Shown one piece after another: positions 979-41,406 of a stretch of 64,000 bases of DNA. The position numbers were made by a program, and so were the translations under genes. Numbering within the stretch: position 1 is the first letter of the stretch; each line of letters opens with the position of its first letter. The DNA is from an uncultured Gemmatimonadales bacterium. Lineage in GTDB: Bacteria; Gemmatimonadota; Gemmatimonadetes; Gemmatimonadales; JACORV01. The stretch spans positions 153,948-217,947 of the forward strand of contig CAWDZR010000016.1 of the NCBI GenBank assembly GCA_963806755.1, read 5' to 3'. The notes under the pieces are model-generated. The model was not told the origin of the DNA and did not search any database. It was given only the letters and a program-made list of their open reading frames with translations.

Positions 979-1082
979 GCCAGGTCCTCCCAGGGGATGG
1001 CCCGGCGCCGGGCGCGGTTTGCGGCGCGCCGCCGGGTGCGCGTACGTTGCTCGATGGTTGGCTCAATTTAGTGGAGACTCCG

Positions 1083-2300
1083 ATGCGTCGCATGCTCTTG
1101 TCGTTCGCCCTGCTGCTTGCCGCCGTCCCCGCGCTCGCCCAGCAGCCGTCGGCCGCAGCGCCCGGCGGCCTGACGATCCGGCTCGGCGTGCCCGCCTCGA
1201 CGCCCGCGGGTGCCGCGGTGTACGTGGCCGGCAGCTTCAACGCCTGGAACCCCGCCGATTCGAGCTGCCGGCTCGCGAGGGCCGCCGACGGCTCGTACAC
1301 CATCACGCTGCCGGAGACGGTGCGCGGCCCGGTCGAGTTCAAGTTCACGCTCGGCTCGTGGGACCGGGCCGAGACGGACAGCGCCGGCCGCGACGTCGGC
1401 AATCGCGCGTTCACCATCCCGGCCGCGGGCCCCGCCACGTGGGAGGGCGCCGTCGCGGCCTGGCGGAAGGGCCCGGCGGCGCCCCGCGCCCACACGGCCA
1501 GCGCGTCGGTCTCGATCCTCGACACCGCGTTCGCGATACCGCAGCTCGGCCGGACGCGGCGGGTGTGGCTGTATCTCCCGCCCGGCTACGCCGCTTCGCA
1601 CCGGCGCTATCCCGTGCTGTACCTCCACGACGGCCAGAACGTGTTCGACGCGGCAACCAGCTACGCCGGCGAGTGGGGCGTGGACGAGACGCTCGACAGC
1701 CTGCGCGCACTTGGCGACCCGGGTGTGATCGTGGTCGCGGTGGACAACGGCGGCGCCGAGCGGATGAACGAGTACATGCCGTGGAAGGCGGCGACGGCGG
1801 ACGTCGGCGGCGGCCAGGGCGGCGCCTACGTGGACTTCCTGGCCAGGACCCTCAAGCCCTGGGTGGACGCGCACTACCGCACCCTGCGCGATCCCGCCCA
1901 CACCGGCATCGGGGGCTCGAGCCTGGGGGGGCTGATCTCCTTCTACGCCGCCCTCGAGTACCCGCGGGTGTTCGGCCGCGCGATCGTGTTCTCGACGCCC
2001 TTCTTCATCAACCCGGAGCTGTACGCGATGGCCCGCGCGTTCCGGCCCCCGCGCTCCCGCGTGCGATTCTACTTCGACATGGGCGCGGGCGAGGGCCTGG
2101 GCAGCCTGGGCCTGCCCGACAGCGCGATGGTGCGCTCGCAGCGGGCCATGGTGGATACGCTGGCGGCGGCGGGGGTGGACACCGTGCGCGACGTCCGCGC
2201 CATCGTCCGCGCCGACGGGCAGCACCAGGAGTGGTTCTGGAGGAGAGAGTTCGCCGCGGCGTATCTGTACTTGTTCGAGAACAGGACGACGGGGAGGTGA
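1083..2300 (+). CDS. Secreted esterase-family alpha/beta hydrolase with an N-terminal carbohydrate-binding (CBM20/48-like) beta-sandwich domain
   Basis: Track ORF 1047..2300. The preferred start is ATG 1083, 6 nt after GGAG (1073-1076), giving signal peptide MRRMLLSFALLLAAVPALAQQ. Supporting motifs: YVAGSFNAWNP..FKF..GSWD (starch/glycogen-binding-like), and YLHDGQNVF plus GGSSLGG (GxSxG), typical of the 'putative esterase' family. Confidence 0.75.
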   Translation: MRRMLLSFALLLAAVPALAQQPSAAAPGGLTIRLGVPASTPAGAAVYVAGSFNAWNPADSSCRLARAADGSYTITLPETVRGPVEFKFTLGSWDRAETDSAGRDVGNRAFTIPAAGPATWEGAVAAWRKGPAAPRAHTASASVSILDTAFAIPQLGRTRRVWLYLPPGYAASHRRYPVLYLHDGQNVFDAATSYAGEWGVDETLDSLRALGDPGVIVVAVDNGGAERMNEYMPWKAATADVGGGQGGAYVDFLARTLKPWVDAHYRTLRDPAHTGIGGSSLGGLISFYAALEYPRVFGRAIVFSTPFFINPELYAMARAFRPPRSRVRFYFDMGAGEGLGSLGLPDSAMVRSQRAMVDTLAAAGVDTVRDVRAIVRADGQHQEWFWRREFAAAYLYLFENRTTGR

Positions 2301-2392
2301 TGAAGTGATGGCGTGATGATGTGATGAGGTGATGGCCGGGCGCGGGACCGTCATCACTTCATCACCGCATCACCTCCATCACGTCCTCACCT
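2293..2392. terminator. Long imperfect hairpin between convergent genes, built from GTGATG units (left arm) and CATCAC units (right arm)
   Basis: Left arm: ggaggtgatgaagtgatggcgtgatgatgtgatgaggtgatgg. Right arm: ccgtcatcacttcatcaccgcatcacctccatcacgtcctcacc. For example, gtgatgaagtgatg (2297-2310) is the exact complement of catcacttcatcac (2352-2365). The stop codons of both flanking genes (2298-2300 and 2387-2389) lie inside the arms. Confidence 0.5.
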
Positions 2393-2728
2393 TCCCGTGG
2401 GCCCCTCGTGCTCCACCTTGCCCACGAGGCTGCCGTCCTTCGCGTTGACGTTCACCTCGTAGATGCCGGGCCGGCTCGGGACCTTGAACTCGAACGACCA
2501 GATCAGGAGGCCGTTCTCGTTCTCCAGCTCGAGGGCCTGCACGGTCCCACTCGGGATCCGCGCCTGCGCCACCTTCAGGGCGGAATCCTCCGTGATCTTG
2601 GTCTGCCTGAGGAGGCGCGGCGGCACCTCGCGCTTGTAGGCTCGCGCCGGTTGCTGCTGGGCGGCGGCCAAGGTGGGGATGCCGCCGAGTGCACCGGCGA
2701 CGACGGCGACGGCGATGAGACGATTCAT
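2387..2728 (-). CDS. PepSY domain-containing secreted protein
   Basis: This is the C-terminal part of track ORF 2387..3022; the real start is ATG 2728 (MNRLIAVAVVAGALGGIPTLAAAQQ signal peptide). The segment ITEDSALKVAQARIPSGTVQALELENENGLLIWSFEFK..YEVNVNAKDGSLV matches the PepSY pattern. Confidence 0.75.
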   Translation of the reverse strand: MNRLIAVAVVAGALGGIPTLAAAQQQPARAYKREVPPRLLRQTKITEDSALKVAQARIPSGTVQALELENENGLLIWSFEFKVPSRPGIYEVNVNAKDGSLVGKVEHEGPTGR

Positions 2729-2805
2729 CGGTGACTCCTTCTGCAAAGGGATGGACAACACCCGGTGAGTGGTGAACGGGTGAGAACGAGGGAGACGTTC
2801 ACCTC

Positions 2806-5800
2806 CTAGCTCCCGCTTCTCACGTCCGGATTCCGCGCCTTCGCGCTCCCCTCGGGGAGCCAGTCCCGTCCGCGCACGGCGACCACCAGGGTCGGGACGA
2901 GAAACAGGGTGATGGGCGTCGAGAGCGCCAGGCCGCCGATGACCGCCAGCGCCAGCGGCTGCTGCATCTCGCTCCCGGCGCCGAGGGCCAGGGCGAGCGG
3001 GAAGAGCCCGAACAAGGTGCACAGCGTCGTCATCAGGATCGGGCGCAGCCTGATCCGCCCCGCGTCGATGATGGCTTGTTCCAGCGGCATTCCGTCGTAC
3101 AGCCCGCGGCGCCTGGTGAAATCGAGCAGGATGATGCCGTTCTTGACGATGAGCCCCACCAGCAGGATCAAGCCCATGAACGAGGAGACGTTGAGTGGCG
3201 TGCCCGTCACCCAGAGCATGCCGATGGCGCCGATGGACGACACGGGCGCGGCGAGCGCGATGGAGAGCGGCTCGACGAACGACTCGAACTGCAGCACCAT
3301 CACCGCGATCACGCTCACCGTGGCGAGACCGAGCACCATCAGCAGGGCCCGGAACGCGTCCTGCTGGCTCGCGTACTGGCCGCCGAATTCGAGGCGGATC
3401 CCGGTCGGCGGCGGATTGGCCGCCAGCACGCGCTTGACGTCGCCGATCACCTGGCCCAGCGACCGGCCGCTGACGTCGGCCGTCATGGCGATCATCTGCT
3501 GCTGGTTCTCGCGATCCAGCTCGGCCCGCGACTCCACCGGCCGGATGCTCGCGAGCGCCGAGAGCGGGGCCACCCGGCCCCCCACGCCGGCGGAGATGGG
3601 GAGCGATCCGAGCTTCATGGGGTCGAAGCGCACGGAGTCGGGTGCGCGCACCCGCACGTCGATGGCGCGGTCGTCGGTGTGGACCTGACCGGCGTCAACG
3701 CCCAGCAGCGCGCCGCTCACGCCGGCCCCCACCTGCTCCGGCGTCATCCCGATGCGGCTCGCCTCCGCCTGGTCCACCTTGAGCAGCATCTCGGCCGCCG
3801 GCAGGCTGACGCCGTCGTAGAGGTCCACCAGCCCGTCCACCTTCTCGAGCGGCGGCGCAACGCGGCGCGCGTACGCCTCGAGGGAATCGAGCTGGCTGCC
3901 GAACAACTTGATTTCGACCGGCTTGGCCCCCGAGCCGGAGAGGTCGTTGATCACGTCGGACAGAATCTGTACGAACTCGATGTGCAGGGTCGGGATCGCC
4001 GCGTTGACCTTGTCACGCACGTCGTCCATCACCTGGAAGATGGTGCGCCTGCGCTGGCTCCGCGGCTTGAGGCGGGCCACCAGGTCGCCCGTATTCTGCA
4101 GGGTCGCGTACAACCCCAGCTCGGCGCCCGTGCGCCGGGAGGTGGCGGTGATCTCGGGCTCCTGGGCGAGGATGTGCTCGACGATCTTCATCTCGCGGTC
4201 CGTCTCGGCGAGCGCCGTCCCGCCCGGCGTCCAGTAGTCGAGCACGAACGCACCCTCGTCCATGTCGGGGAGGAACCCGCTCCCCAGGAACCGCTGCACG
4301 ACCACGCCACCCACGATCAGCGCCAGGGCGCCCGCCAGCACCCGGCGCGGATGGCGCAGGACCGACCCCAGCGCCTTCGCATAGAGGTCCCCGAGACCGT
4401 CGAGGGCATGACCCACCAGCTCCGGGATCGCGGCCAGGCCGCCGCGCCGCCGCGCGCCCGAACCCGCCTCCGTCTCGATGTCCTCCTCCCGCAGGTACTG
4501 GTCCGACAGGAGGGGGATGACCGTGAAGGCCAGCACCAGCGAGATCAGCACCGCGATGGTGAGCGTCAGCCCGAGCGCAGCGAAGAACTGTCCCGCGACC
4601 CCCTGCAGCAACCCGAGGGGCAGGAACACCACCACCGTCGTGATCGTGGACGTCGCGACCGGCCAGATCAACTCCTGCACCGCCTCCCGCACGGCCACGT
4701 GGCGGTCCGGGACCAGCAGGAGGTGGCGCGCGATGTTCTCGGTGATGACGACCGCGTCGTCGATGACCAGGCCGATGGCCAGGGCCATCGCGCCGAGCGT
4801 CATCAGGTTGAATGTCTGACCCACGAGGTGCATCACGAAGATGGTGATGATCATCGTGAGGGGGATCGAGGAGGCGCTGATGGCGGTGATGCGGCCACGG
4901 CGCAGGAAGGCCAGCAGGATCACGACGGCGAGGAACGCGCCGATCAGCATCGCGTCCCGGACGGCCTTGACCGCGTCCCGCACCAGGGTGGCCTGGTCGT
5001 AGACGGGCACGAAGTGCACGCCGGGCGGCAGGGTCGGCGCGAGCTCCGCCATCGTCCTGGCGACGCTGTCCGCCAGCTCGAGGGTGTTCCCGCCGATCTG
5101 CCGCGTCACGAAGATGGCGGCGACGGGCTTGCCGTCGCCGGAGATGATGCGGACGTGGTCCTCGGTGCCGAGGTTCACGGTCGCCACGTCCCTCACCCGC
5201 AGTCCGTTGCCGATGACCACGTTCCCGACGTCCTCGGGGGTGCGGGCGTCCTGGTCGGTGACGATCAGGTACTGCTTGTAGTCCTTGGCGATCCGCCCCA
5301 CGGCCTCGGGAGTGATGGCCTGGCGGATGTCGTTGGCCAGATCGTCGTAGGTCAGCCCCAGGGTGGCGAGGCGCGTGGGGTCCGCCACGACCTCGATCTC
5401 CCGCACGTCCGTGCCCTGCACCTCCACCCGCCCCACCCCCGGCATGCCGGACAGGGCGGGCATGATCTGATAGCGCGCGATGTCGTAGAGGGTGGCGGGG
5501 TCGCCTCCCTCCAGGTTGTACGAGAGAATCGGGAAGAGCGACGGGGTCATGCGCTCGACGCGGACGTCGAGACCGGGCGGAAGCTGGGAGGCGATCTGGT
5601 TCACGTACGCCCGCACCAGGTCGAGCGCGTTGATCATGTCCGTGTTGGGCGCGAACCAGATCGAGATCTCGCTCGCGCCGCGGATGGACCGGGAGTGGAC
5701 GCGCCGCACGCCCGGCACCACGCTCACCGCCTGCTCGAGCGGCCGGGTGATGCTGAAGACGACTTGCCGGGTGCCGAGCGAGGAGCCCTGCGCGACGACG

Positions 5801-18285: not shown

Positions 18286-19158
18286 TCAGGTGGTGGTGGG
18301 GCGGAGCCGCGCGGGCGCCGCCGCCTGGAGGATGCGCTCGAGCCACGGCTCGAGATCGCGGTACGCCATCGCGCGGTCCTTCTCGTTCAGGACCTCGTGA
18401 TAGAAGCCGTCGTAAACGCGCACCGTCACGTCGCCCCGGAGCCCGCGCGCGAAGGCCTCCGAGGCCGGCCGGGAGACGATACGGTCGTCGCCGCCGAGGA
18501 GGAAGAGCAGCGGGACCGCGATCCGGTCCCCTTCGGCCAGCACGGCCGCCTGGGCGGCCAGCACCTCGCGATACGCGCGCGGCGTCATGACCCGGTGGTA
18601 GAGGGGGTCGCTGAGCGCCGCCTGGCCGACGGCCGGGTCCGTGGACAGGTGGGCCGCGTCGAGGCCGGTCGCGACGGGCAGCGCCGGCAGGATCTCGCCC
18701 AGCGCCCGCGCCAGCACCCGCTTCCACCGCGGCACCGGCATGGCCACCGCGAGGAACGGACTCACCAGGATGCCGCCCGCCAGGCCCTCCGGCCCCGTCT
18801 CCAGGTAGCGCAGCGCCACGCAGCCGCCGAAGGAATGGCCGAGGATGACCTGCGGGCCCGGGACCTCCCCGCCGGCGAGCTTGCGCAGCGCCGCGACGTC
18901 CGAGAGGAACTGCGCGAAGCGCGACATGTGGCCGCGCCGGCCCGGGGACCGGCCGTGCCCCCGCTGGTCCAGCGCGTACACCGCGAGGCCCCGCCGGCTG
19001 AACCACTCGGCCGCTTCGACGTAGCGGCCGCTGTGGTCGCCGAAGCCGTGCAGCAGGATCAACGCCCCCCGGGACGGAGTGGCGGGCTGGGCCCGGCGCA
19101 AGGCGAGCCTGGCGCCGTCCGCGGCCGTCCAGAACTCGACCTCGCCGAAGCCCGCCAT
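18286..19158 (-). CDS. Alpha/beta hydrolase (lysophospholipase / monoacylglycerol lipase-like)
   Basis: This is the C-terminal 290 aa of track ORF 18286..19788, starting at ATG 19158. Supporting motifs: LLHGFGDHSGRY, the nucleophile elbow GHSFGG, and ..GGDDRIV..FYHEVLNE. Confidence 0.8.
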   Translation of the reverse strand: MAGFGEVEFWTAADGARLALRRAQPATPSRGALILLHGFGDHSGRYVEAAEWFSRRGLAVYALDQRGHGRSPGRRGHMSRFAQFLSDVAALRKLAGGEVPGPQVILGHSFGGCVALRYLETGPEGLAGGILVSPFLAVAMPVPRWKRVLARALGEILPALPVATGLDAAHLSTDPAVGQAALSDPLYHRVMTPRAYREVLAAQAAVLAEGDRIAVPLLFLLGGDDRIVSRPASEAFARGLRGDVTVRVYDGFYHEVLNEKDRAMAYRDLEPWLERILQAAAPARLRPTTT

Positions 19159-19160
19159 GC

Positions 19161-20489
19161 TCAGCTCCCTCCCCCTCCGCCGTCGGCCATCGCGCGCCGC
19201 AGCGCGTCGAGCGCCGCCTGCGCGGCGCGGCGCCGGATCGCGTCGCGGTCGCCGGGCAGCAGGAACCGGAAGGCCCGCACCCGCCCCTGCCATTGCACGC
19301 CGATCCACACCGTGCCCACGGGCTTCTCCGGCGTCCCCCCGTCGGGCCCGGCAATGCCGGTGACGGCGATCGCCGCGTCGGTGCCGAGGACGCGGGCCGC
19401 CCCCGCGCACATCTGGCGCACGACCTCCTCGCTCACGGCACCGTGTCGCGCCAGCTCGTCGGCCGACACGCCGAGGAGTCCGCACTTCACGTCGTTGTCG
19501 TAGGCGACCACGCCGCCGAGGAAGACGCGCGAGCTGCCGGGCACGGCGGTGATCCGTCCTCCCAGCAACCCGCCGGTGCACGATTCGGCGACCGCCAGCC
19601 TGGCGCCGTGGCGCTCGAGCTCGCCGAGGACGAGCGCCGCGAGATCCGCGTCGCCTTCGCCGTAGCAGGTCGCGCCCAGCAGCGGGCGCAGCGCCGCGGC
19701 GGCCTTCGCCAGCGCCGCCTCGGCCTCCGCCGGAGCGACCTGCCACGCCGTCAGCCTGAGGTCGGTGCCTTCGGGGCCGGGGAGCCACGCGAGCGTCACG
19801 TGCTGCCCGAGCAGCCGGGAGGGGTCGCCGACCTTGTCCGCGAGCGCGGATTCCGAAATGCCGGTGGTGCGCAGCGTGCGGCTGAGGATGACCGTGGCCG
19901 CGGTCTCCGTGCCTCCGTGCCCCTGTGCCCCCGTGCCTCCGTCCTCCCGTGCCCCCGTGCCCCCGTGCCCCCGTGCCACCAGCCTCGGGATCACCTCCTG
20001 CTCGAGCAGCCCCCGCATCTCGACCGGCACGCCGGGGAGCAGGACGGCCAGGCGGCCGCGATCGTCCTCGAGCCAGAGCCCCGGGGCGGTGCCCGCGCGG
20101 TTCGGGAGCACCGTGGCGCCCTCCGGCACGTCCGCCTGGCGCCGGTTGGCCTCGGGCATCGGCCCGCGGCCCAGCCGGGCGAACCGCTCCTCGAGGGCGG
20201 CCACCAGCGCGGGGTCGCGCACCAGGCGGCGGCCGAAGACCGCGGCCACGGCCTCGCGCGTGAGGTCGTCCTCGGTCGGGCCGAGCCCGCCCGTGACGAT
20301 CACGGTGCCGGTGCGCTCGAGCGCGGCCGCCACGGCCGCGCGCACGGCTGCGGCCTCGTCGCCGACCGTGCCGTGCGCCGCGAGCCGGATGCCAGCCGCG
20401 GCCAGCCGCCGCCCGGCGTCGGCCGCGTTCGTGTCCACCGTGAAGCCCAGCAGCAGCTCGGTGCCGACGGTCAGGAGCTCGCAGTCCAT
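19161..20489 (-). CDS. cinA: CinA family protein (MoCF-binding domain plus nicotinamide-nucleotide amidohydrolase PncC domain)
   Basis: This is the C-terminal 442 aa of track ORF 19161..21125, starting at ATG 20489. Supporting motifs: ELLTVGTELLLG..DTNA.., ..VTGGLGPTEDDLT.., and C-terminal AESCTGGLLG..VAY.N..K...LGV. The interdomain linker carries the 8-nt repeat tract. Confidence 0.85.
   Translation of the reverse strand: MDCELLTVGTELLLGFTVDTNAADAGRRLAAAGIRLAAHGTVGDEAAAVRAAVAAALERTGTVIVTGGLGPTEDDLTREAVAAVFGRRLVRDPALVAALEERFARLGRGPMPEANRRQADVPEGATVLPNRAGTAPGLWLEDDRGRLAVLLPGVPVEMRGLLEQEVIPRLVARGHGGTGAREDGGTGAQGHGGTETAATVILSRTLRTTGISESALADKVGDPSRLLGQHVTLAWLPGPEGTDLRLTAWQVAPAEAEAALAKAAAALRPLLGATCYGEGDADLAALVLGELERHGARLAVAESCTGGLLGGRITAVPGSSRVFLGGVVAYDNDVKCGLLGVSADELARHGAVSEEVVRQMCAGAARVLGTDAAIAVTGIAGPDGGTPEKPVGTVWIGVQWQGRVRAFRFLLPGDRDAIRRRAAQAALDALRRAMADGGGGGS
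19907..19978. repeat. Nine tandem copies of an 8-nt unit (CCGTGCCC on +, GGGCACGG on the coding strand), in frame inside cinA
   Basis: Units: ccgtgcct ccgtgccc ctgtgccc ccgtgcct ccgtcctc ccgtgccc ccgtgccc ccgtgccc ccgtgcca. That is 72 nt or 24 codons, encoding ..ARGHGGTGAREDGGTGAQGHGGTE.. Confidence 0.85.
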
Positions 20490-20491
20490 GG

Positions 20492-21127
20492 TCAGCGCTG
20501 GGGCGCGCGGAACAAGGCGCGGTACCGGTACAGGTACACGGCGAAGGAGTACACGGTCAGGACGACCGCGATGGCCAGCGTGAGGGCCACCACGGCGCCG
20601 TGGAAGTCGTCCCAGGCGTCCCGCAGGCGGCCGGTGAGCCCGGTCGAGACGATGTAGTCCTTCCACGCGAACCAGGCGATGGTGGCGCCGATGAAGACGT
20701 ACTGGAAGATGGCCTTGAGCTTCCCCTCGTTGCCCGCGGGAATCACGACGCCGCGCTTCTTCGCTTCGTAGCGGAACGCCGTCATCAGCAGCTCGCGGCC
20801 CACGAGCATGATCGCCACCCACAGCGGCAGGCTCCCCCACCACGGGATCCCGTACAGCACGGTCGGGTGGCGCGTGAGCCAGTAGATGGGCACGAGGGTC
20901 GCGACCAGCAGCAGCTTGTCGGCGACGGGGTCGAGCAGCTTGCCCACGTCGCTCACCTGCTGGCGGCTGCGCGCCAGGTAGCCGTCCACCACGTCGCTGA
21001 CGGCGGCGACGACGAAGATCACGAACGCGATGACCTTGGGCCAGTAACCTTCGATGAACGGCAGCAGGGCGATGACCGGCGCGAGGACGATGCGCGCCAG
21101 GGTGAGAACGTTCGGCAGGGTCCACAT
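20492..21127 (-). CDS. pgsA: CDP-diacylglycerol--glycerol-3-phosphate 3-phosphatidyltransferase
   Basis: MWTLPNVLTLARI.. with the CDP-alcohol phosphatidyltransferase motif SDVVDGYLAR....S..GKLLDPVADK. 211 aa, multi-TM. Confidence 0.9.
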   Translation of the reverse strand: MWTLPNVLTLARIVLAPVIALLPFIEGYWPKVIAFVIFVVAAVSDVVDGYLARSRQQVSDVGKLLDPVADKLLLVATLVPIYWLTRHPTVLYGIPWWGSLPLWVAIMLVGRELLMTAFRYEAKKRGVVIPAGNEGKLKAIFQYVFIGATIAWFAWKDYIVSTGLTGRLRDAWDDFHGAVVALTLAIAVVLTVYSFAVYLYRYRALFRAPQR

Positions 21128-21134
21128 GCGCCCG

Positions 21135-21812
21135 TCAGCCGAGCGACTTCAATACCAGCTTGCTGACCGCCTTGAGCGTCTCGAAGACGCCGTCGCCCGT
21201 GATCGCCACCGCCTCGTACGCCGGCGCGCGCTCCACCCACTCGCCGGTGGGCAGCTGCATGACGAGGTACTCGCCCGCCCAGTTCGGGTCGGGCGTGACC
21301 TTCTGCCGGTCGGGGCTCGCGACCGGCCAGCCGGGATTCAGCGAGGCCTGCAGCTCCTTGATCGGCGATGCGTTGGGAAGGTCGCGCTTGTTGTACTGCA
21401 CCACGAAGGGGAGCTTGGTCAGGTCGTAGCCGTACTCGGCCATGTTGTCGTACAGGTTCTGCATGGACTCGATGTTCGCTTCCATGCGCTCGACCTGGCT
21501 GTCGGCCACGAACACGATGCCGTCCACGCCCTTGAGGATCAGCTTGCGGCTGGCGTTGTAGTACACCTGGCCCGGCACGGTGTAGAGGTGGAACCGGGTC
21601 TTGAAGCCGCGGATCGTGCCCAGGTCCACGGGCAGGAAGTCGAAGAACAGCGTGCGCTCGGTCTCGGTCGCGAGCGAGATGAGCTTGCCGCGCGTGTTGG
21701 GCTGCACCTTGCCGTACACGTGCTCGAGGTTGGTGGTCTTGCCCCCCAGCCCGGGCCCGTAGTACACGAGCTTGCAGTTGATCTCGCGCGAGGCGTAGTT
21801 GATCATCGACAT
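21135..21812 (-). CDS. mglA: MglA-type Ras-like small GTPase (polarity/gliding motility regulator) carrying an insertion of about 35 aa
   Basis: [86 protein letters not shown]. This is near-identical in pattern to Myxococcus MglA. There is extra sequence between LNP and YEAVA. Confidence 0.9.
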
Positions 21813-25623: not shown

Positions 25624-25730
25624 GGAGTGCCCCAGGCACCCCGCCGCGACGTGGGACATCACTTAGCGCTGCTGCCTTCGGGGCTCTGACGCGGTTCGTG
25701 CGCCCTCGCCCGACGGACCTGGGGCACCTC
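25624..25730 (-). ncRNA. ffs: Signal recognition particle RNA (small, 4.5S-type)
   Basis: Minus-strand RNA: GGUGCCCCAGG...CGUCAGAGCCCCGAAGGCAGCAGCGCUAAGUGAUG...CCUGGGGCAC. The ends form a 10-bp closing helix. The apical GUCAG..GAAGG.AGCAGC..AAG.GA resembles the conserved domain IV of E. coli 4.5S RNA (GUCAGGUCCGGAAGGAAGCAGCCAAGGCAGA). It sits immediately upstream of dnaX, as in Bacillus subtilis scr-dnaX. Ends are approximate. Confidence 0.8.
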
Positions 25731-36533: not shown

Positions 36534-37556
36534 TCACTTCAGCACTTCCGCGACCACCGCGATCGCGCGCTCGACGTCGGCGGCGCTCACGTCGAGGTGC
36601 GTGATGGCCCTGAGCCGCTTCGGTCCGAACGCCGTCACCAGCACGCCCCGCTCCGCCAGCTTCGGGATCACGTCGTCGGCCATGTGACGGGTGAGGTCGA
36701 GCATCACGATGTTCGTCTCGGGCGGAAGCGGGCGCACGGCCGGGTGGCCCGCGAGGCCGTCGGCCAGGCGCCGGGCGTTGGCGTGGTCCTCGGCGAGCCG
36801 GCCGAGGTTGTGCTCGAGCGCCCAGAGCCCGGCGGCCGTGAGGATGCCCGACTGGCGCATCCCGCCGCCGAAGCGCTTGCGGATCTCCCACACCTCATCG
36901 CGCGCCTCCTTCGGGAACGCGAGGCACGAGCCGATGGGACAGCCCAGCCCCTTCGAAAGGCTCACCATCACGGTGTCGGCGGGCGCCGCGAGACGCGAGG
37001 GCGGGACGCCCAGCGCGGCCGCCGCGTTCCACAGCCGCGCGCCGTCGAGGTGCAGCGGCACCTTCACCTCCCGGGCCAGCGACCCGATGGCATCGCCCAC
37101 CGCGGCCGGCATCACCTTCCCGCCCGCCGCATTGTGGGTGTTCTCGATCGCCATCGCCGAGACGCGCGGGTAGTGCGGCGACCGGGGCCGCAAGGCCGCA
37201 CGCAGGAGCTCCGCCGTCAGCACGCCGTCGGGCGTCTGGACCGGGCGGACCTGCACCCCGGCGTTCGCGGCCACGCCGGCGATCTCGTACGTCAGCAGGT
37301 GCGCGCCGGCCTCCAGCAGCAGCTCCGTGCCGGGCCGCGTCAGGAGCCGGATGCCGGTCTGGTTGGCCTGCGTGCCGCTGGGGAAGAACAGCGCCGCTCC
37401 CTTGCCCAGCAGCTCGGCCACGCGCTCCTCGAGGCGCAGCGTGGTCGGGTCGTGGTCCAGGACGTCGTCGCCGACCTCCGCCTCGGCCATGGCGCGGCGC
37501 ATCGCGGCCGACGGGCGGGTGACGGTATCGGAGCGGAGATCTATGGGCATGGCCAT
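36534..37556 (-). CDS. ltaE: Low-specificity L-threonine aldolase (PLP)
   Basis: IDLRSDTVTRPS.AMR.AMA.AEVGDDV...DPT...LE..VAELLGK.AALF.PSGTQAN. The start is placed at ATG 37556 (MAMPIDL). The track GTG at 37580 would lie inside the GGCACGGG repeat. Confidence 0.85.
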   Translation of the reverse strand: MAMPIDLRSDTVTRPSAAMRRAMAEAEVGDDVLDHDPTTLRLEERVAELLGKGAALFFPSGTQANQTGIRLLTRPGTELLLEAGAHLLTYEIAGVAANAGVQVRPVQTPDGVLTAELLRAALRPRSPHYPRVSAMAIENTHNAAGGKVMPAAVGDAIGSLAREVKVPLHLDGARLWNAAAALGVPPSRLAAPADTVMVSLSKGLGCPIGSCLAFPKEARDEVWEIRKRFGGGMRQSGILTAAGLWALEHNLGRLAEDHANARRLADGLAGHPAVRPLPPETNIVMLDLTRHMADDVIPKLAERGVLVTAFGPKRLRAITHLDVSAADVERAIAVVAEVLK

Positions 37557-37575
37557 GGGCGCACCAACGCTGGAG

Positions 37576-37602
37576 GGCACGGGGGCACGGGAACGGCACG
37601 GC
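37576..37602. repeat. Intergenic GGCACGG(G) short tandem repeat
   Basis: ggcacggg ggcacggg aac ggcacggc, between the yihY-family stop codon and the ltaE start. Same unit as in cinA (19907..19978). Confidence 0.7.
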
Positions 37603-37608
37603 TGGCGC

Positions 37609-38496
37609 CTAGCGCAGCACCGCGCGCTGCGCGGTCTGGCGCCGCCGCAGCTCGTACACCTGCGCGATCTGGGCGCCGATGAGAAAGACGAACGTGAGGT
37701 AGTACACCCAGGCCACGAACAGGATGAGGGCGCCGAGCGTGGCGTCGCTCACCAGCTGGCCGGGGCGCACGAAGGTGCGGAAATAGATGCCCAGCGCGGT
37801 CCTCGCGACCTCGAAGCAGACCGCGCACACGAGGCCGGCCACGAGCGCCGTGTCCCAGCGCACCCGGTGCGCGGGGGCGTACTTGAAGATCATGACGAAC
37901 AGGCCGACCAGGAACGCGAAGGCCAGGATCTGGGCGGCGAAGAACTCGACGAAGCCGTGCCGGCCTTCCACCGAGAGCAGGCCCACGCTGAGCGCGGTGT
38001 AAACGGCGGAGAGAAGGCCGGTAGCCACGACCAGCACTGCGTCGTACGCCTTGCCGCGGAGCCAGGAGCGGGTCTCGCGGGTGTCGAAGACCTCGCACAG
38101 GGCGGCCCGCAGGGAGCCGAAGAGCCGGGTCGCAAACCAGACGAACAGCGGCAGGCCGACGAGGGTCAGGCGGCCGCGCGAGTGGGCGACGGTTTCGACC
38201 AGGTGGACCACCGGCGCGAAGGGGTCGGCGCCCGCGCCGCGGCCGTATTCCGGCAGGAGGCCCTGCAGGTACACGGCAAGATCCACCCGCGCGGCGGCCG
38301 CGCGCGCGTTGAGGACCGAGCCGGCGATGGAGAGGATCACGAGGACGAGCGGGATGGCGGCGAGGAGCGCGTCGAACGCCAGGCCGCTCGCGAGGAACGG
38401 CACGTTCGCCTCCACCGCGCCTTCGTAGACGCGGCGGACGAAGTTCCGCACGTCGTGCCACAGAAACAGCCAGCGGCGATGGCGGTCGGCCGCCAC
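37609..38496 (-). CDS. YihY/BrkB family membrane protein
   Basis: 295 aa. ..NVPFLASGLAFDALLAAIPLVLVIL.., six hydrophobic segments, C-terminal ..LILFVAWVYYLTFVFLIGAQIAQVYE. GTG start. Confidence 0.8.
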   Translation of the reverse strand: MAADRHRRWLFLWHDVRNFVRRVYEGAVEANVPFLASGLAFDALLAAIPLVLVILSIAGSVLNARAAAARVDLAVYLQGLLPEYGRGAGADPFAPVVHLVETVAHSRGRLTLVGLPLFVWFATRLFGSLRAALCEVFDTRETRSWLRGKAYDAVLVVATGLLSAVYTALSVGLLSVEGRHGFVEFFAAQILAFAFLVGLFVMIFKYAPAHRVRWDTALVAGLVCAVCFEVARTALGIYFRTFVRPGQLVSDATLGALILFVAWVYYLTFVFLIGAQIAQVYELRRRQTAQRAVLR

Positions 38497-38504
38497 GGTC
38501 GTGG

Positions 38505-39002
38505 CTACGCTCCCGGCTCCTCGCTGCCGCCGGGCGGCAGGGTGCCGCCGCGGGGCACGGTGCCCCCGCGGGGCACGGTGCCCCCCGGCGGGGAGCGCCG
38601 GGCGGCGCGCCGCGCCTCACGGGCGTCCGCGAGCCGCTGCTCGAGCTCGGCGCGCGCCGACGTGGCCACCTCGCGACCGGCCTCGACCGCGTCGTGCGCC
38701 GCATCCCGGCCTTCCTGCACGCTGCGCTTGGCCCGCTCGAGGTGCTCCTCGACGCGCGCCCGGGCGCTCTCGTAGCCGCCCGCCACCAGATCCTCGAGTT
38801 CGTCCACCTTCTCGGTGGCGAGGTCCTTGAGCTTGCGGGAGCGCGAGCGCAGGTCGGCGCGCAGCGCCGCGCCGCTCATCGGCGCGAACAGCAGGCCGAG
38901 GGCGGCGCCGGCCGCCAGCCCCCACAGGAACGGCGCCACCGCGGAGCCGCGCTTCTCCACCACCACCACGTCCTCGTCATCCTCGTCGTGATGCCGGGCC
39001 AT
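38505..39002 (-). CDS. YtxH domain-containing protein
   Basis: FLWGLAAGAALGLLFAPMSGAALRADLRSRSRKLKD.. followed by a long charged helix. The C-terminal tail PPGGTVPRGGTVPRGGTLPPGG is encoded by the 18-nt tandem repeat. Confidence 0.7.
   Translation of the reverse strand: MARHHDEDDEDVVVVEKRGSAVAPFLWGLAAGAALGLLFAPMSGAALRADLRSRSRKLKDLATEKVDELEDLVAGGYESARARVEEHLERAKRSVQEGRDAAHDAVEAGREVATSARAELEQRLADAREARRAARRSPPGGTVPRGGTVPRGGTLPPGGSEEPGA
38530..38583. repeat. Three tandem 18-nt units, each containing the palindrome GGCA(C/G)GGTGCC, in frame at the 3' end of the YtxH gene
   Basis: ccgggcggcagggtgccg / ccgcggggcacggtgccc / ccgcggggcacggtgccc. Confidence 0.8.
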
Positions 39003-40983: not shown

Positions 40984-41406
40984 ATGCGCCCGCCGCGCTC
41001 GCCGCCGCGCGTCCTCGCGTACGATCTCGGCGAGGGCTGGACGGCGCTGGTCGGGCGCTCGGACGCCGACAACGACCGGCTGACGCTGCGCCTGGCGCGC
41101 CCGGACGACCGCTGGTTCCACGTGCGCGGCTGGCCCGGGAGCCACGTGCTGCTGCGCGGCCCGGAGGGCGAAGAGCCCGGCCGGGACCTGCTCGAGCGCG
41201 CGGCGGCCATCGCGGCGCATCACAGCAAGGCGCGCGACGCGGGCGTGGTGCCGGTCTCGTGCACGCTCGCGCGCCACGTCACCAAGCCCCGGGGCGCCAA
41301 GCCCGGGTCGGTGGAGATCCGCAAGGAAGTCGTGCTGAAGGTCCGCCCCGCTCTGCCGGGCGGCACGGGGCCGCCGCGCGGCACGGTGCCGCCGGGCGGC
41401 GCCTGA
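40984..41406 (+). CDS. NFACT-R/DUF814 domain protein
   Basis: Lies in the frame of track ORF 40318..41406, starting at ATG 40984. Sequence: ..GWTALVGRSDADNDRLTLRLARPDDRWFHVRGWPGSHVLLRG..AA.IAA.HSKAR.....V......V.KP.GAKPG.V. The tail LPGGTGPPRGTVPPGGA is encoded by the 18-nt repeat. Confidence 0.7.
   Translation: MRPPRSPPRVLAYDLGEGWTALVGRSDADNDRLTLRLARPDDRWFHVRGWPGSHVLLRGPEGEEPGRDLLERAAAIAAHHSKARDAGVVPVSCTLARHVTKPRGAKPGSVEIRKEVVLKVRPALPGGTGPPRGTVPPGGA
41356..41403. repeat. About 2.5 tandem 18-nt units of the same GGCACGG(T/G)GCC family, in frame at the 3' end of the DUF814 gene
   Basis: ccgggcggcacggggccg / ccgcgcggcacggtgccg / ccgggcggcgcc. Confidence 0.75.

Follow-up and report, generated by a model that had tools for sequence, protein, structure and literature searches.

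The cinA gene of an uncultured Gemmatimonadales bacterium (GenBank assembly GCA_963806755.1, contig CAWDZR010000016.1) contains a tandem array of an octanucleotide that is translated in frame. The array was analyzed within a stretch of 64,000 nucleotides of this contig (positions 153,948 to 217,947), hereafter referred to as the window, and all coordinates are those of the window unless a contig is named. On the evidence assembled here, it is probably a translated octanucleotide microsatellite that sits in a permissive hinge of the CinA enzyme, where it is resized by slippage or inter-unit recombination and filtered by selection on the reading frame. A preliminary description of the window had offered two readings of the array, i.e., a slipped-strand phase-variation switch or a tolerated expansion in a linker. 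The second is supported by the keeping of frame and by the hypervariable, disordered hinge in which the array lies; the first found no support.

Tandem Repeats Finder (TRF) placed a repeat at 19907-19977, with a period of 8, 8.9 copies, 85% matches, a score of 107 and the consensus CCGTGCCC, and this was the top-scoring tandem repeat of the whole window. Read unit by unit on the gene strand, from 19977 to 19906, the array consists of GGCACGGG x4, AGGACGGA, GGCACGGG, GGCACAGG, GGCACGGA and GGCACGGA, amounting to nine units, 72 nt or 24 codons. Both readings bear out the earlier account of nine head-to-tail 8-nt units spanning 72 nt in frame in cinA, and the naming of the product as a GHGGTGA-type linker was correct, the array encoding ARGHGGTGAREDGGTGAQGHGGTE. 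Only four of the nine units are perfect and contiguous: the first four GGCACGGG units form a perfect period-8 tract of 32 nt at 19946-19977, which is plausibly the only portion of the array of sufficient length to be a substrate for slippage. The ungapped period-8 segment score was 67, relative to 18.7 +/- 2.6 (maximum 28) in 200 dinucleotide-preserving shuffles of the 64-kb window, which has a G+C content of ~72%. The array is confirmed as real and non-random. Long simple sequence repeats (LSSRs) are defined by a unit of 1-11 nt and a total length over a cut-off set by a random-genome model (Mrazek 2007, as cited in PMC11868660); the cinA array has the length of an LSSR when judged by the dinucleotide-shuffle control on the 64-kb window.

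The open reading frame (ORF) that runs from 20489 to 19161 is predicted from its sequence to encode CinA, a housekeeping enzyme of NAD salvage. All three CinA Pfam domains are found in order, each well over its gathering score, and the closest solved structure is CinA of Thermus thermophilus (TtCinA; 4uux, E = 1.4e-63). The source names of the homologues point to Gemmatimonadales. Within the KH domain, the motif GISES is the counterpart of the conserved GIGES loop, with E213 invariant in 55 homologues. The array had been placed between the MoCF-binding and PncC domains; it does lie inside cinA after the MoCF domain, but the next domain according to Pfam is of the KH type and PncC is not adjacent. 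An AlphaFold2 model based on 55 homologues has a mean predicted local distance difference test score (pLDDT) of 89.3, and falls below 50 only at residues 177-195 and at the last four residues. The low-confidence stretch is flanked by a helix (residues 155-176) and a strand (residues 200-208), and the model predicts the ~24 residues encoded by the array to be disordered. As expected of a disordered linker, the low confidence in structure goes together with variable length and sequence in orthologues (10-43 aa between the anchors defined below). TtCinA (PDB 4CT8/4UUX; PMC4246079) is likewise a three-domain enzyme, with a domain boundary after the ...EV(I/L)PRL helix and a conserved G-I-(G/S)-E-S loop past the hinge. 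It differs in the length of the hinge, which is 8 residues between ...EVLPRL (168) and 177, as against 32 residues in the window CinA, 24 of them array-encoded. According to the published account of TtCinA (PMC4246079), its COG1058 domains rock by ~51 degrees against the KH and deamidase domains, and because they move at this point, added flexible residues in the hinge are plausibly harmless.

The octamer itself is of a kind that an ORF can accommodate. A tandem run of GGCACGGG offers the trinucleotides GGC, GCA, CAC, ACG, CGG and GGG, and its complement CCC, CCG, CGT, GTG, TGC and GCC, and all six frames are free of stop codons. Since 8 and 3 are coprime, the three sense frames all give one cyclic peptide, GTGARGHG, and the antisense frames give PVPPCPRA. 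With no stops and a peptide independent of frame, the array would therefore do no harm in an ORF whenever its net length is divisible by 3, and only the sequence downstream of it should be sensitive to frame.

To compare the array between relatives, we used 120 homologues of 64-100% identity, with the hinge delimited by the anchors EVIPRL and VI(L/R)SRTLRT. The hinge is strongly variable in length among them, and between one and four octapeptides such as HGGTGAQG or HGRTDAQT recur. The octapeptide RTDAQTHG is what the unit variant CGCACGGA/CGCACAGA gives when its three phases are translated. At the DNA level, 69 metagenomic cinA loci were taken together with genome loci and exact-match loci, and the anchors were searched in three frames, so that frameshifted alleles were detectable and the DNA loci formed a frame-unbiased sample. 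Every linker recovered (n = 49, 42 of them distinct, 27-129 nt) had a length that was a multiple of 3, and not one out-of-frame allele was found among the 42 distinct linkers. At least three GCACRG units at 8-nt spacing were present in 22 of these 42, and the 8-nt periodicity persists down to ~64-68% protein identity (L032 and L041).

Between close strains, the arrays are stable with one exception. Eight contig pairs from separate samples, with 0-4 substitutions per ~1.3 kb, carry identical arrays, and in ten 90%-identity clusters, among members with a readable linker, only substitutions were seen apart from one length variant. In this variant, L193 differs from L194, L195 and L196 by an exact 24-nt deletion, i.e., three units or 8 aa, on a background of 3-4 substitutions in ~1.9 kb (99.8% identity). 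At greater distances, a common layout is shared by the window, L002, L020, L008 and L018 over ~20% protein divergence: four GGCAC units, a degenerate unit and three or four more, the degenerate mid-array unit being A(G/A)GACGGN, which encodes 'ED'. The 4+1+4 layout is unchanged in L199 (83% identity), in which CGCACGGA-type units are used throughout; the arrays of relatives thus differ in a concerted fashion. Decayed arrays that drift to GCG/GCC codons are found in L197 (84%) and L037, and the 42-nt hinge of L198 (83%) has almost no unit left. The preliminary description had suggested comparing unit number among strains and relatives and looking for cinA orthologues that lack the segment, and had named a fixed unit number with aperiodic orthologues as the outcome that would speak against its proposal. 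That outcome was not found: unit number is not invariant, given the three-unit change in L193, and all linkers stay in frame; the segment is short in Thermus (8 aa) and nearly unit-free in L198, but many other orthologues are 8-nt periodic.

The reading as a contingency locus holds that slippage by one or two units reversibly toggles cinA between a full-length product and a COG1058-only or aberrant one, as a form of heritable bet-hedging. Its premises are sound as far as they go. Frame is kept only by multiples of three units, as had been calculated correctly, and the array is a tandem tract of a unit that is not a multiple of 3, lies in an ORF and is beyond chance length, so that it passes the screening cut-off of at least three octanucleotide units in an ORF (PMC7383803). 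It includes the perfect 32-nt tract, and unit number changes between close strains and in an intergenic orthologue described below. When a +1/-2 unit change was simulated, a stop was reached after a tail of ~55 aa, giving a product of 225-233 aa that keeps only the COG1058 domain, and keeps it intact; standalone COG1058 proteins exist (3kbq). In addition, cinA of M. tuberculosis is reported to be dispensable and to affect drug tolerance (PMC9033802). A simulated -1/+2 unit change behaved differently, with the frame staying open for >730 codons, through the next gene: the ATG of the downstream hydrolase gene is 2 nt past the cinA stop, and such a frameshift would therefore read through into it, in a tightly packed operon containing a housekeeping gene. 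The OFF states of a hypermutable tract did not appear, all 49 linkers from these consensus assemblies being 0 mod 3 in length. An OFF fraction of 30% is common among true phase-variable genes, and at that fraction the chance of seeing 0/42 distinct linkers out of frame would be ~3e-7. Further evidence against a switch is that the single strain-level length change is exactly three units, that arrays from the same population are identical across samples, that the unit-by-unit layout is kept over ~20% protein divergence, that 5/9 units are interrupted, and that the hosts are free-living and environmental. The phase-variation proposal is, in our estimation, very improbable.

Two sets of apparently broken proteins were considered as frameshift alleles and rejected. 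The 186-aa truncated CinA of L189 (P0152), the sole apparently truncated allele, is due to an in-frame GAG-to-TAG nonsense change 3 codons past the array and not to slippage. At this site (L189 3055-3061) the GAG-to-TAG change is accompanied by GGC-to-GAC, and the product ends past the COG1058 domain; either a pseudogene or an error may account for the allele. The P0133 proteins, which start inside the array, were taken as candidate split genes; their contigs begin at the array.

Comparison with known simple sequence repeat (SSR) contingency loci, such as the tetra-, penta- and heptanucleotide tracts of Haemophilus, Neisseria and Campylobacter (PMC11868660), points in the same direction. The cinA array resembles them in having units that are not a multiple of 3 in an ORF, in slipped-strand mispairing as the likely mechanism and in strain-to-strain differences in unit number. 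It differs in the absence of out-of-frame alleles among the 42 distinct linkers, in being interrupted with only 4 perfect units, in its deeply conserved layout, in belonging to a housekeeping gene of a free-living host, and in its position in a disordered hinge, where in-frame resizing would be neutral. That only frame-preserving length changes are seen in cinA points, as judged from these sequences, to purifying selection on a functional gene and not to an ON/OFF switch. A non-multiple-of-3 repeat in an ORF is on its own insufficient evidence for phase variation, and genome-wide 'phasome' screens with the cut-off of at least three octanucleotide units would label the cinA array a switch.

The translated microsatellite that we favor would work as follows. 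Units would be gained, lost and homogenized in the DNA, through either slipped-strand mispairing or inter-unit recombination; with the enzyme under selection, only frame-preserving outcomes would survive in cinA, and the 24-nt three-unit step and other in-frame indels are the outcomes observed. The visible product is a hinge that varies in length (10-43 aa between anchors in relatives), and the intact, uniform, interrupted and eroded arrays may represent a microsatellite cycle of expansion, homogenization, interruption and decay. The cinA array would then be one member of a Gemmatimonadales octamer family located at permissive sites, i.e., protein termini, loops and intergenic spacers.

Codon usage was examined to distinguish a repeat maintained in DNA from one selected as a peptide. 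Alanine in the window array is encoded by GCA in 3/3 codons, as against 1% of 214 background Ala codons, and the Gly codons of the array are enriched for GGG and GGA. In the units of relatives (n = 62 Ala codons), GCA was used 35 times, GCG 24 times and GCC 3 times. In comparisons of the window with six relatives, divergence of the aligned linker is 16-23% (33% in L008), relative to 41-49%, near saturation, at 4-fold sites. At 4-fold third positions, A makes up 1.5% outside the linker and 10.6% within it, and an A or T at 4-fold sites outside the linker is retained in only 5.3% of pairwise comparisons. Within units, it is the second codon positions that vary most (R/Q, G/D) and not the third, a pattern that is partly circular for the unit core. 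These codon patterns indicate that the repeat is primarily a DNA feature and not a selected peptide, and peptide-level selection was rejected on codon usage as the origin of the array.

Selection could still act on the peptide once made, if a longer, flexible Gly/Thr/His-rich tether tuned how the COG1058 domain rocks relative to the partner chain's KH domain, or if the regularly spaced His residues bound metal. In keeping with such a role, the hinge is at the site of the large domain movement in TtCinA, the amino acid divergence of the linker between the window and L002 (5/24) is not above the protein average of ~21%, and of nine arrays seen in putative ORFs, eight are translated from the G-rich strand, yielding the hydrophilic GTGARGHG and not PVPPCPRA. 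The codons of the array, however, follow the DNA unit and not the genome (in whose background GCA is at 1%), and unit variation peaks at second and not third codon positions. Both length and sequence of the hinge appear dispensable, because close relatives have a 14-aa hinge or decayed arrays and Thermus has 8 aa, and the array peptide also occurs in unrelated proteins. We consider this peptide-level alternative unlikely.

A second alternative is a nucleic-acid element that happens to be translated: an array of binding sites (a GCAC-G core every 8 nt), a G-quadruplex, or rare codons that pause the ribosome at the domain boundary. The conservation of the DNA well over the neutral level would fit, as would the near-invariance of unit positions 2-5 and 7 with variation at 1, 6 and 8 (partly circular, units being recognized by their core), the presence of arrays at many loci, with one intergenic site conserved in position, and a G-quadruplex motif on the sense strand. 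That motif, however, is present in just 7/22 related arrays with at least three units, and the G-quadruplex was rejected as a conserved feature. With the arrays taken out, single octamers show neither over-representation nor strand bias in the window, the arrays are found in either orientation with respect to transcription, close relatives have decayed or lost the array, and neither an Rfam match in the array nor literature on the motif was found. A function of this kind is thus held to be very unlikely. An octamer resembling Chi, FtsK-orienting polar sequences (KOPS) or uptake sequences was rejected, there being 19 exact copies relative to 10.2 +/- 3.1 expected, 8 of them within arrays, and no strand bias; a known RNA family was rejected as well, the only Rfam match in the window being elsewhere.

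The cinA array is not the only locus of its kind. Of the five perfect period-8 tracts in the window that reach 16 nt or more, three are built from the cinA-array octamer. When one genome per species was scanned for runs of four GCACRGRS units, at least 119 loci were found, with 32 from Gemmatimonadota among the matches listed, and at least nine octamer-array loci in a single metagenome-assembled genome (MAG), MFD01476.bin.1.191. Gemmatimonadota account for ~1% of species; the enrichment is indicative only, no control octamer having been compared. The unit thus occurs at multiple unrelated loci, as in a dispersed LSSR family with 5-11-nt units. A mobile element carrying the array was rejected, since the flanks of the 32 Gemmatimonadota arrays among the matches listed share nothing. 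Calling dispersed arrays as coding or intergenic from G+C at third codon positions was ambiguous and was superseded by Pfam searches on the spanning ORFs. In Gemmatimonadales genomes, these placed arrays that are translated in frame: one inside the MutL C-terminal domain, with domain matches on both sides (L115 7276-7305), one near the C-terminus of a radical-SAM protein, on the C-rich or opposite strand and encoding PVPPCARA (L136 5777-5845), two in the C-terminal tails of an aldehyde dehydrogenase (L166 7149-7202) and a patatin-like protein (L086 7066-7103), and one at what is predicted to be the N-terminus of an enoyl-CoA hydratase (L079 2350-2379). Arrays in L092 and L137 are intergenic. 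A tblastn search of the window with the other array-bearing genes gave no hits.

The second copy of the unit in the window, whose recurrence in an intergenic position had been noted before and is borne out here (a perfect tract at 37575-37591 and a degenerate unit to 37602), is bordered on one side by the stop of a YihY-like gene (37609-38496, -) and on the other by the start of a threonine-aldolase-like gene (~36534-37559, -). The orthologous intergenic array in MAG MFD01476.bin.1.191 (L092 2804-2850), in which both flanks align, is 16 nt or two units longer. Because this orthologue differs by two units, unit-level change does occur and is not frame-filtered outside genes.

Among known repeats, the array fits the LSSRs with units of 5-11 nt, including the dispersed heptamers (TAACTGA) of cyanobacteria and Beggiatoaceae, for which the secondary accounts describe a sporadic distribution among lineages (Mrazek et al. 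2007, as cited in PMC4679880 and PMC11868660). The two have in common one short unit with arrays at many unrelated loci, a sporadic phylogeny, mostly permissive sites and an unknown mechanism of seeding. The Gemmatimonadales unit differs in being an 8-mer that is stop-free in six frames, and because of this it is repeatedly translated in housekeeping proteins (CinA, MutL and the radical-SAM protein). We found no description in the literature of the octamer motif or of SSRs in Gemmatimonadota. Repeats tolerated in frame inside ORFs are familiar from the Rickettsia palindromic elements. In these too a nucleotide-level repeat is found in many unrelated proteins at surface-exposed, permissive positions; the octamer differs in having neither a palindrome nor common flanks, and is a tandem microsatellite and not a discrete mobile insertion.

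Several further observations were made on related repeats. In a thiolase (L082 3264-3301, MAG MFD00008.bin.2.66), frame is lost by +1 exactly at a CGCACRGA array of 4-5 units, and the thiolase sequence downstream (VVTQDEHPRPDTT...) is read on in a different frame; the allele may truly be out of frame or the assembly may contain an indel, such errors being possible in this MAG, and it was not relied on. Perfect arrays of the related unit GGCACAGA, and of GGCACGGA and CGCACGGA, with 4-12 units, occur among the listed matches L071-L188 from many phyla (Planctomycetota, Verrucomicrobiota, Actinomycetota, Pseudomonadota, Bacteroidota and others). They appear mostly non-coding, often with an inverted copy a few tens of nt off (e.g., in L143, L183, L184 and L187). 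At 2285-2400 of the window, two imperfect octamer arrays are inverted relative to each other, (GTGATGAN)~5 at 2297-2334 and (TCATCACN)~5 at 2351-2390. The hairpin they would form has an RNA minimum free energy of -76 kcal/mol (z = -8.5, 0/200 shuffles equally stable), lies between the convergent ORFs 1047-2300 (+) and 2387-3022 (-), and looks like a bidirectional terminator built from octamers. Two proteins end in similar Gly/Thr/Val/Pro repeat tails, ..GGTVPRGGTVPRGGTLPPGG.. at 38525-38585 (gene 38505-39002, -) and ..PGGTGPPRGTVPPGGA* at 41355-41405 (+), both encoded by 18-nt tandem repeats that contain GGCACGG.

Some points weigh against a merely tolerated microsatellite in cinA. Slippage itself is inferred and not observed; the evidence on populations is drawn from consensus assemblies, in which minority alleles do not show and rare OFF variants could go unnoticed, and only one sequence stands for the population of the window itself. 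Three contigs of independent assemblies (L190, L191 and L192, from two JGI metagenomes and one Logan run) begin exactly at the cinA array, through which L003-L005 assemble, and these breaks could reflect heterogeneity or a difficulty of assembly. The conservation of the array exceeds that expected of a neutral linker, so that some function at the level of DNA, RNA or peptide is an alternative to homogenization, which is likewise inferred, and the seeding of one octamer at many unrelated loci is unexplained. Since the above-neutral conservation of units and the multi-locus seeding are both left without explanation, a lineage-wide mechanism retains a small probability. Under such a system, Gemmatimonadales would actively seed and maintain GGCACGGG / CGCACGGA octamers at many loci by a dedicated DNA-level mechanism, with templated repeat addition at breaks, array-to-array gene conversion or selection for an array-binding protein as candidates. 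We regard this as improbable; if it were true, GTGARGHG in CinA and MutL would be a by-product, and the above-neutral conservation and concerted unit change would reflect a function or an active process and not tolerance.

The features of the locus and of the second copy are collected in Table 1. Because the stop of the pgsA-like gene is only 2 nt before the cinA ATG, the two share an operon. The order recR - ? - mglB - mglA - pgsA - cinA - hydrolase is kept in relatives, L189, L193 and L194 among them, mglB corresponding to Robl_LC7. In the window, an MglA-like small GTPase gene (21135-21812, -) is directly upstream of pgsA-cinA. The sole Rfam match in the window is a bacterial small signal recognition particle (SRP) RNA at 25626-25725 (-; RF00169, 41.8 bits).

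Table 1. Coordinates of the cinA locus, its octamer array and the intergenic copy in the 64,000-nt window (CDS, coding sequence; CDP, cytidine diphosphate; NMN, nicotinamide mononucleotide).
Feature	Position	Strand	Basis or remark
cinA CDS, 442 aa, predicted bifunctional COG1058 - KH - PncC enzyme	19161..20489	-	ORF, Pfam, structure homology
MoCF_biosynth / COG1058 (ADP-ribose pyrophosphatase-type) domain, residues 5-170	19980..20477	-	PF00994, 112.8 bits
Inter-domain hinge, residues 171-202	19884..19979	-	pLDDT <50 at 177-195
CinA_KH domain, residues 203-277	19659..19883	-	PF18146, 47.5 bits; contains GISES
CinA/PncC NMN-deamidase domain, residues 282-434	19188..19646	-	PF02464, 187.4 bits
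Octanucleotide array, nine units	19906..19977	-	cinA codons 171-195, V-ARGHGGTGAREDGGTGAQGHGGTE
Perfect period-8 tract, four identical units	19946..19977	-	G-quadruplex motif, sense strand, CDS nt 518-544
pgsA-like gene (CDP-alcohol phosphatidyltransferase), upstream	20492..21127	-	PF01066 at same position in relatives
alpha/beta-hydrolase gene, downstream	18286..19158	-	PF00561/PF12146 at same position in relatives
Second octamer copy, GGGCACGG x2 + degenerate unit, intergenic	37575..37602	+	perfect 2.1-unit tract 37575-37591

As a single locus, the cinA array is of little importance, and the wider pattern is of more interest. Across a little-studied order, octamer arrays that are maintained as DNA also form part of several core proteins, and they offer a natural example of how nucleotide-level repeat dynamics may create and resize protein linkers.

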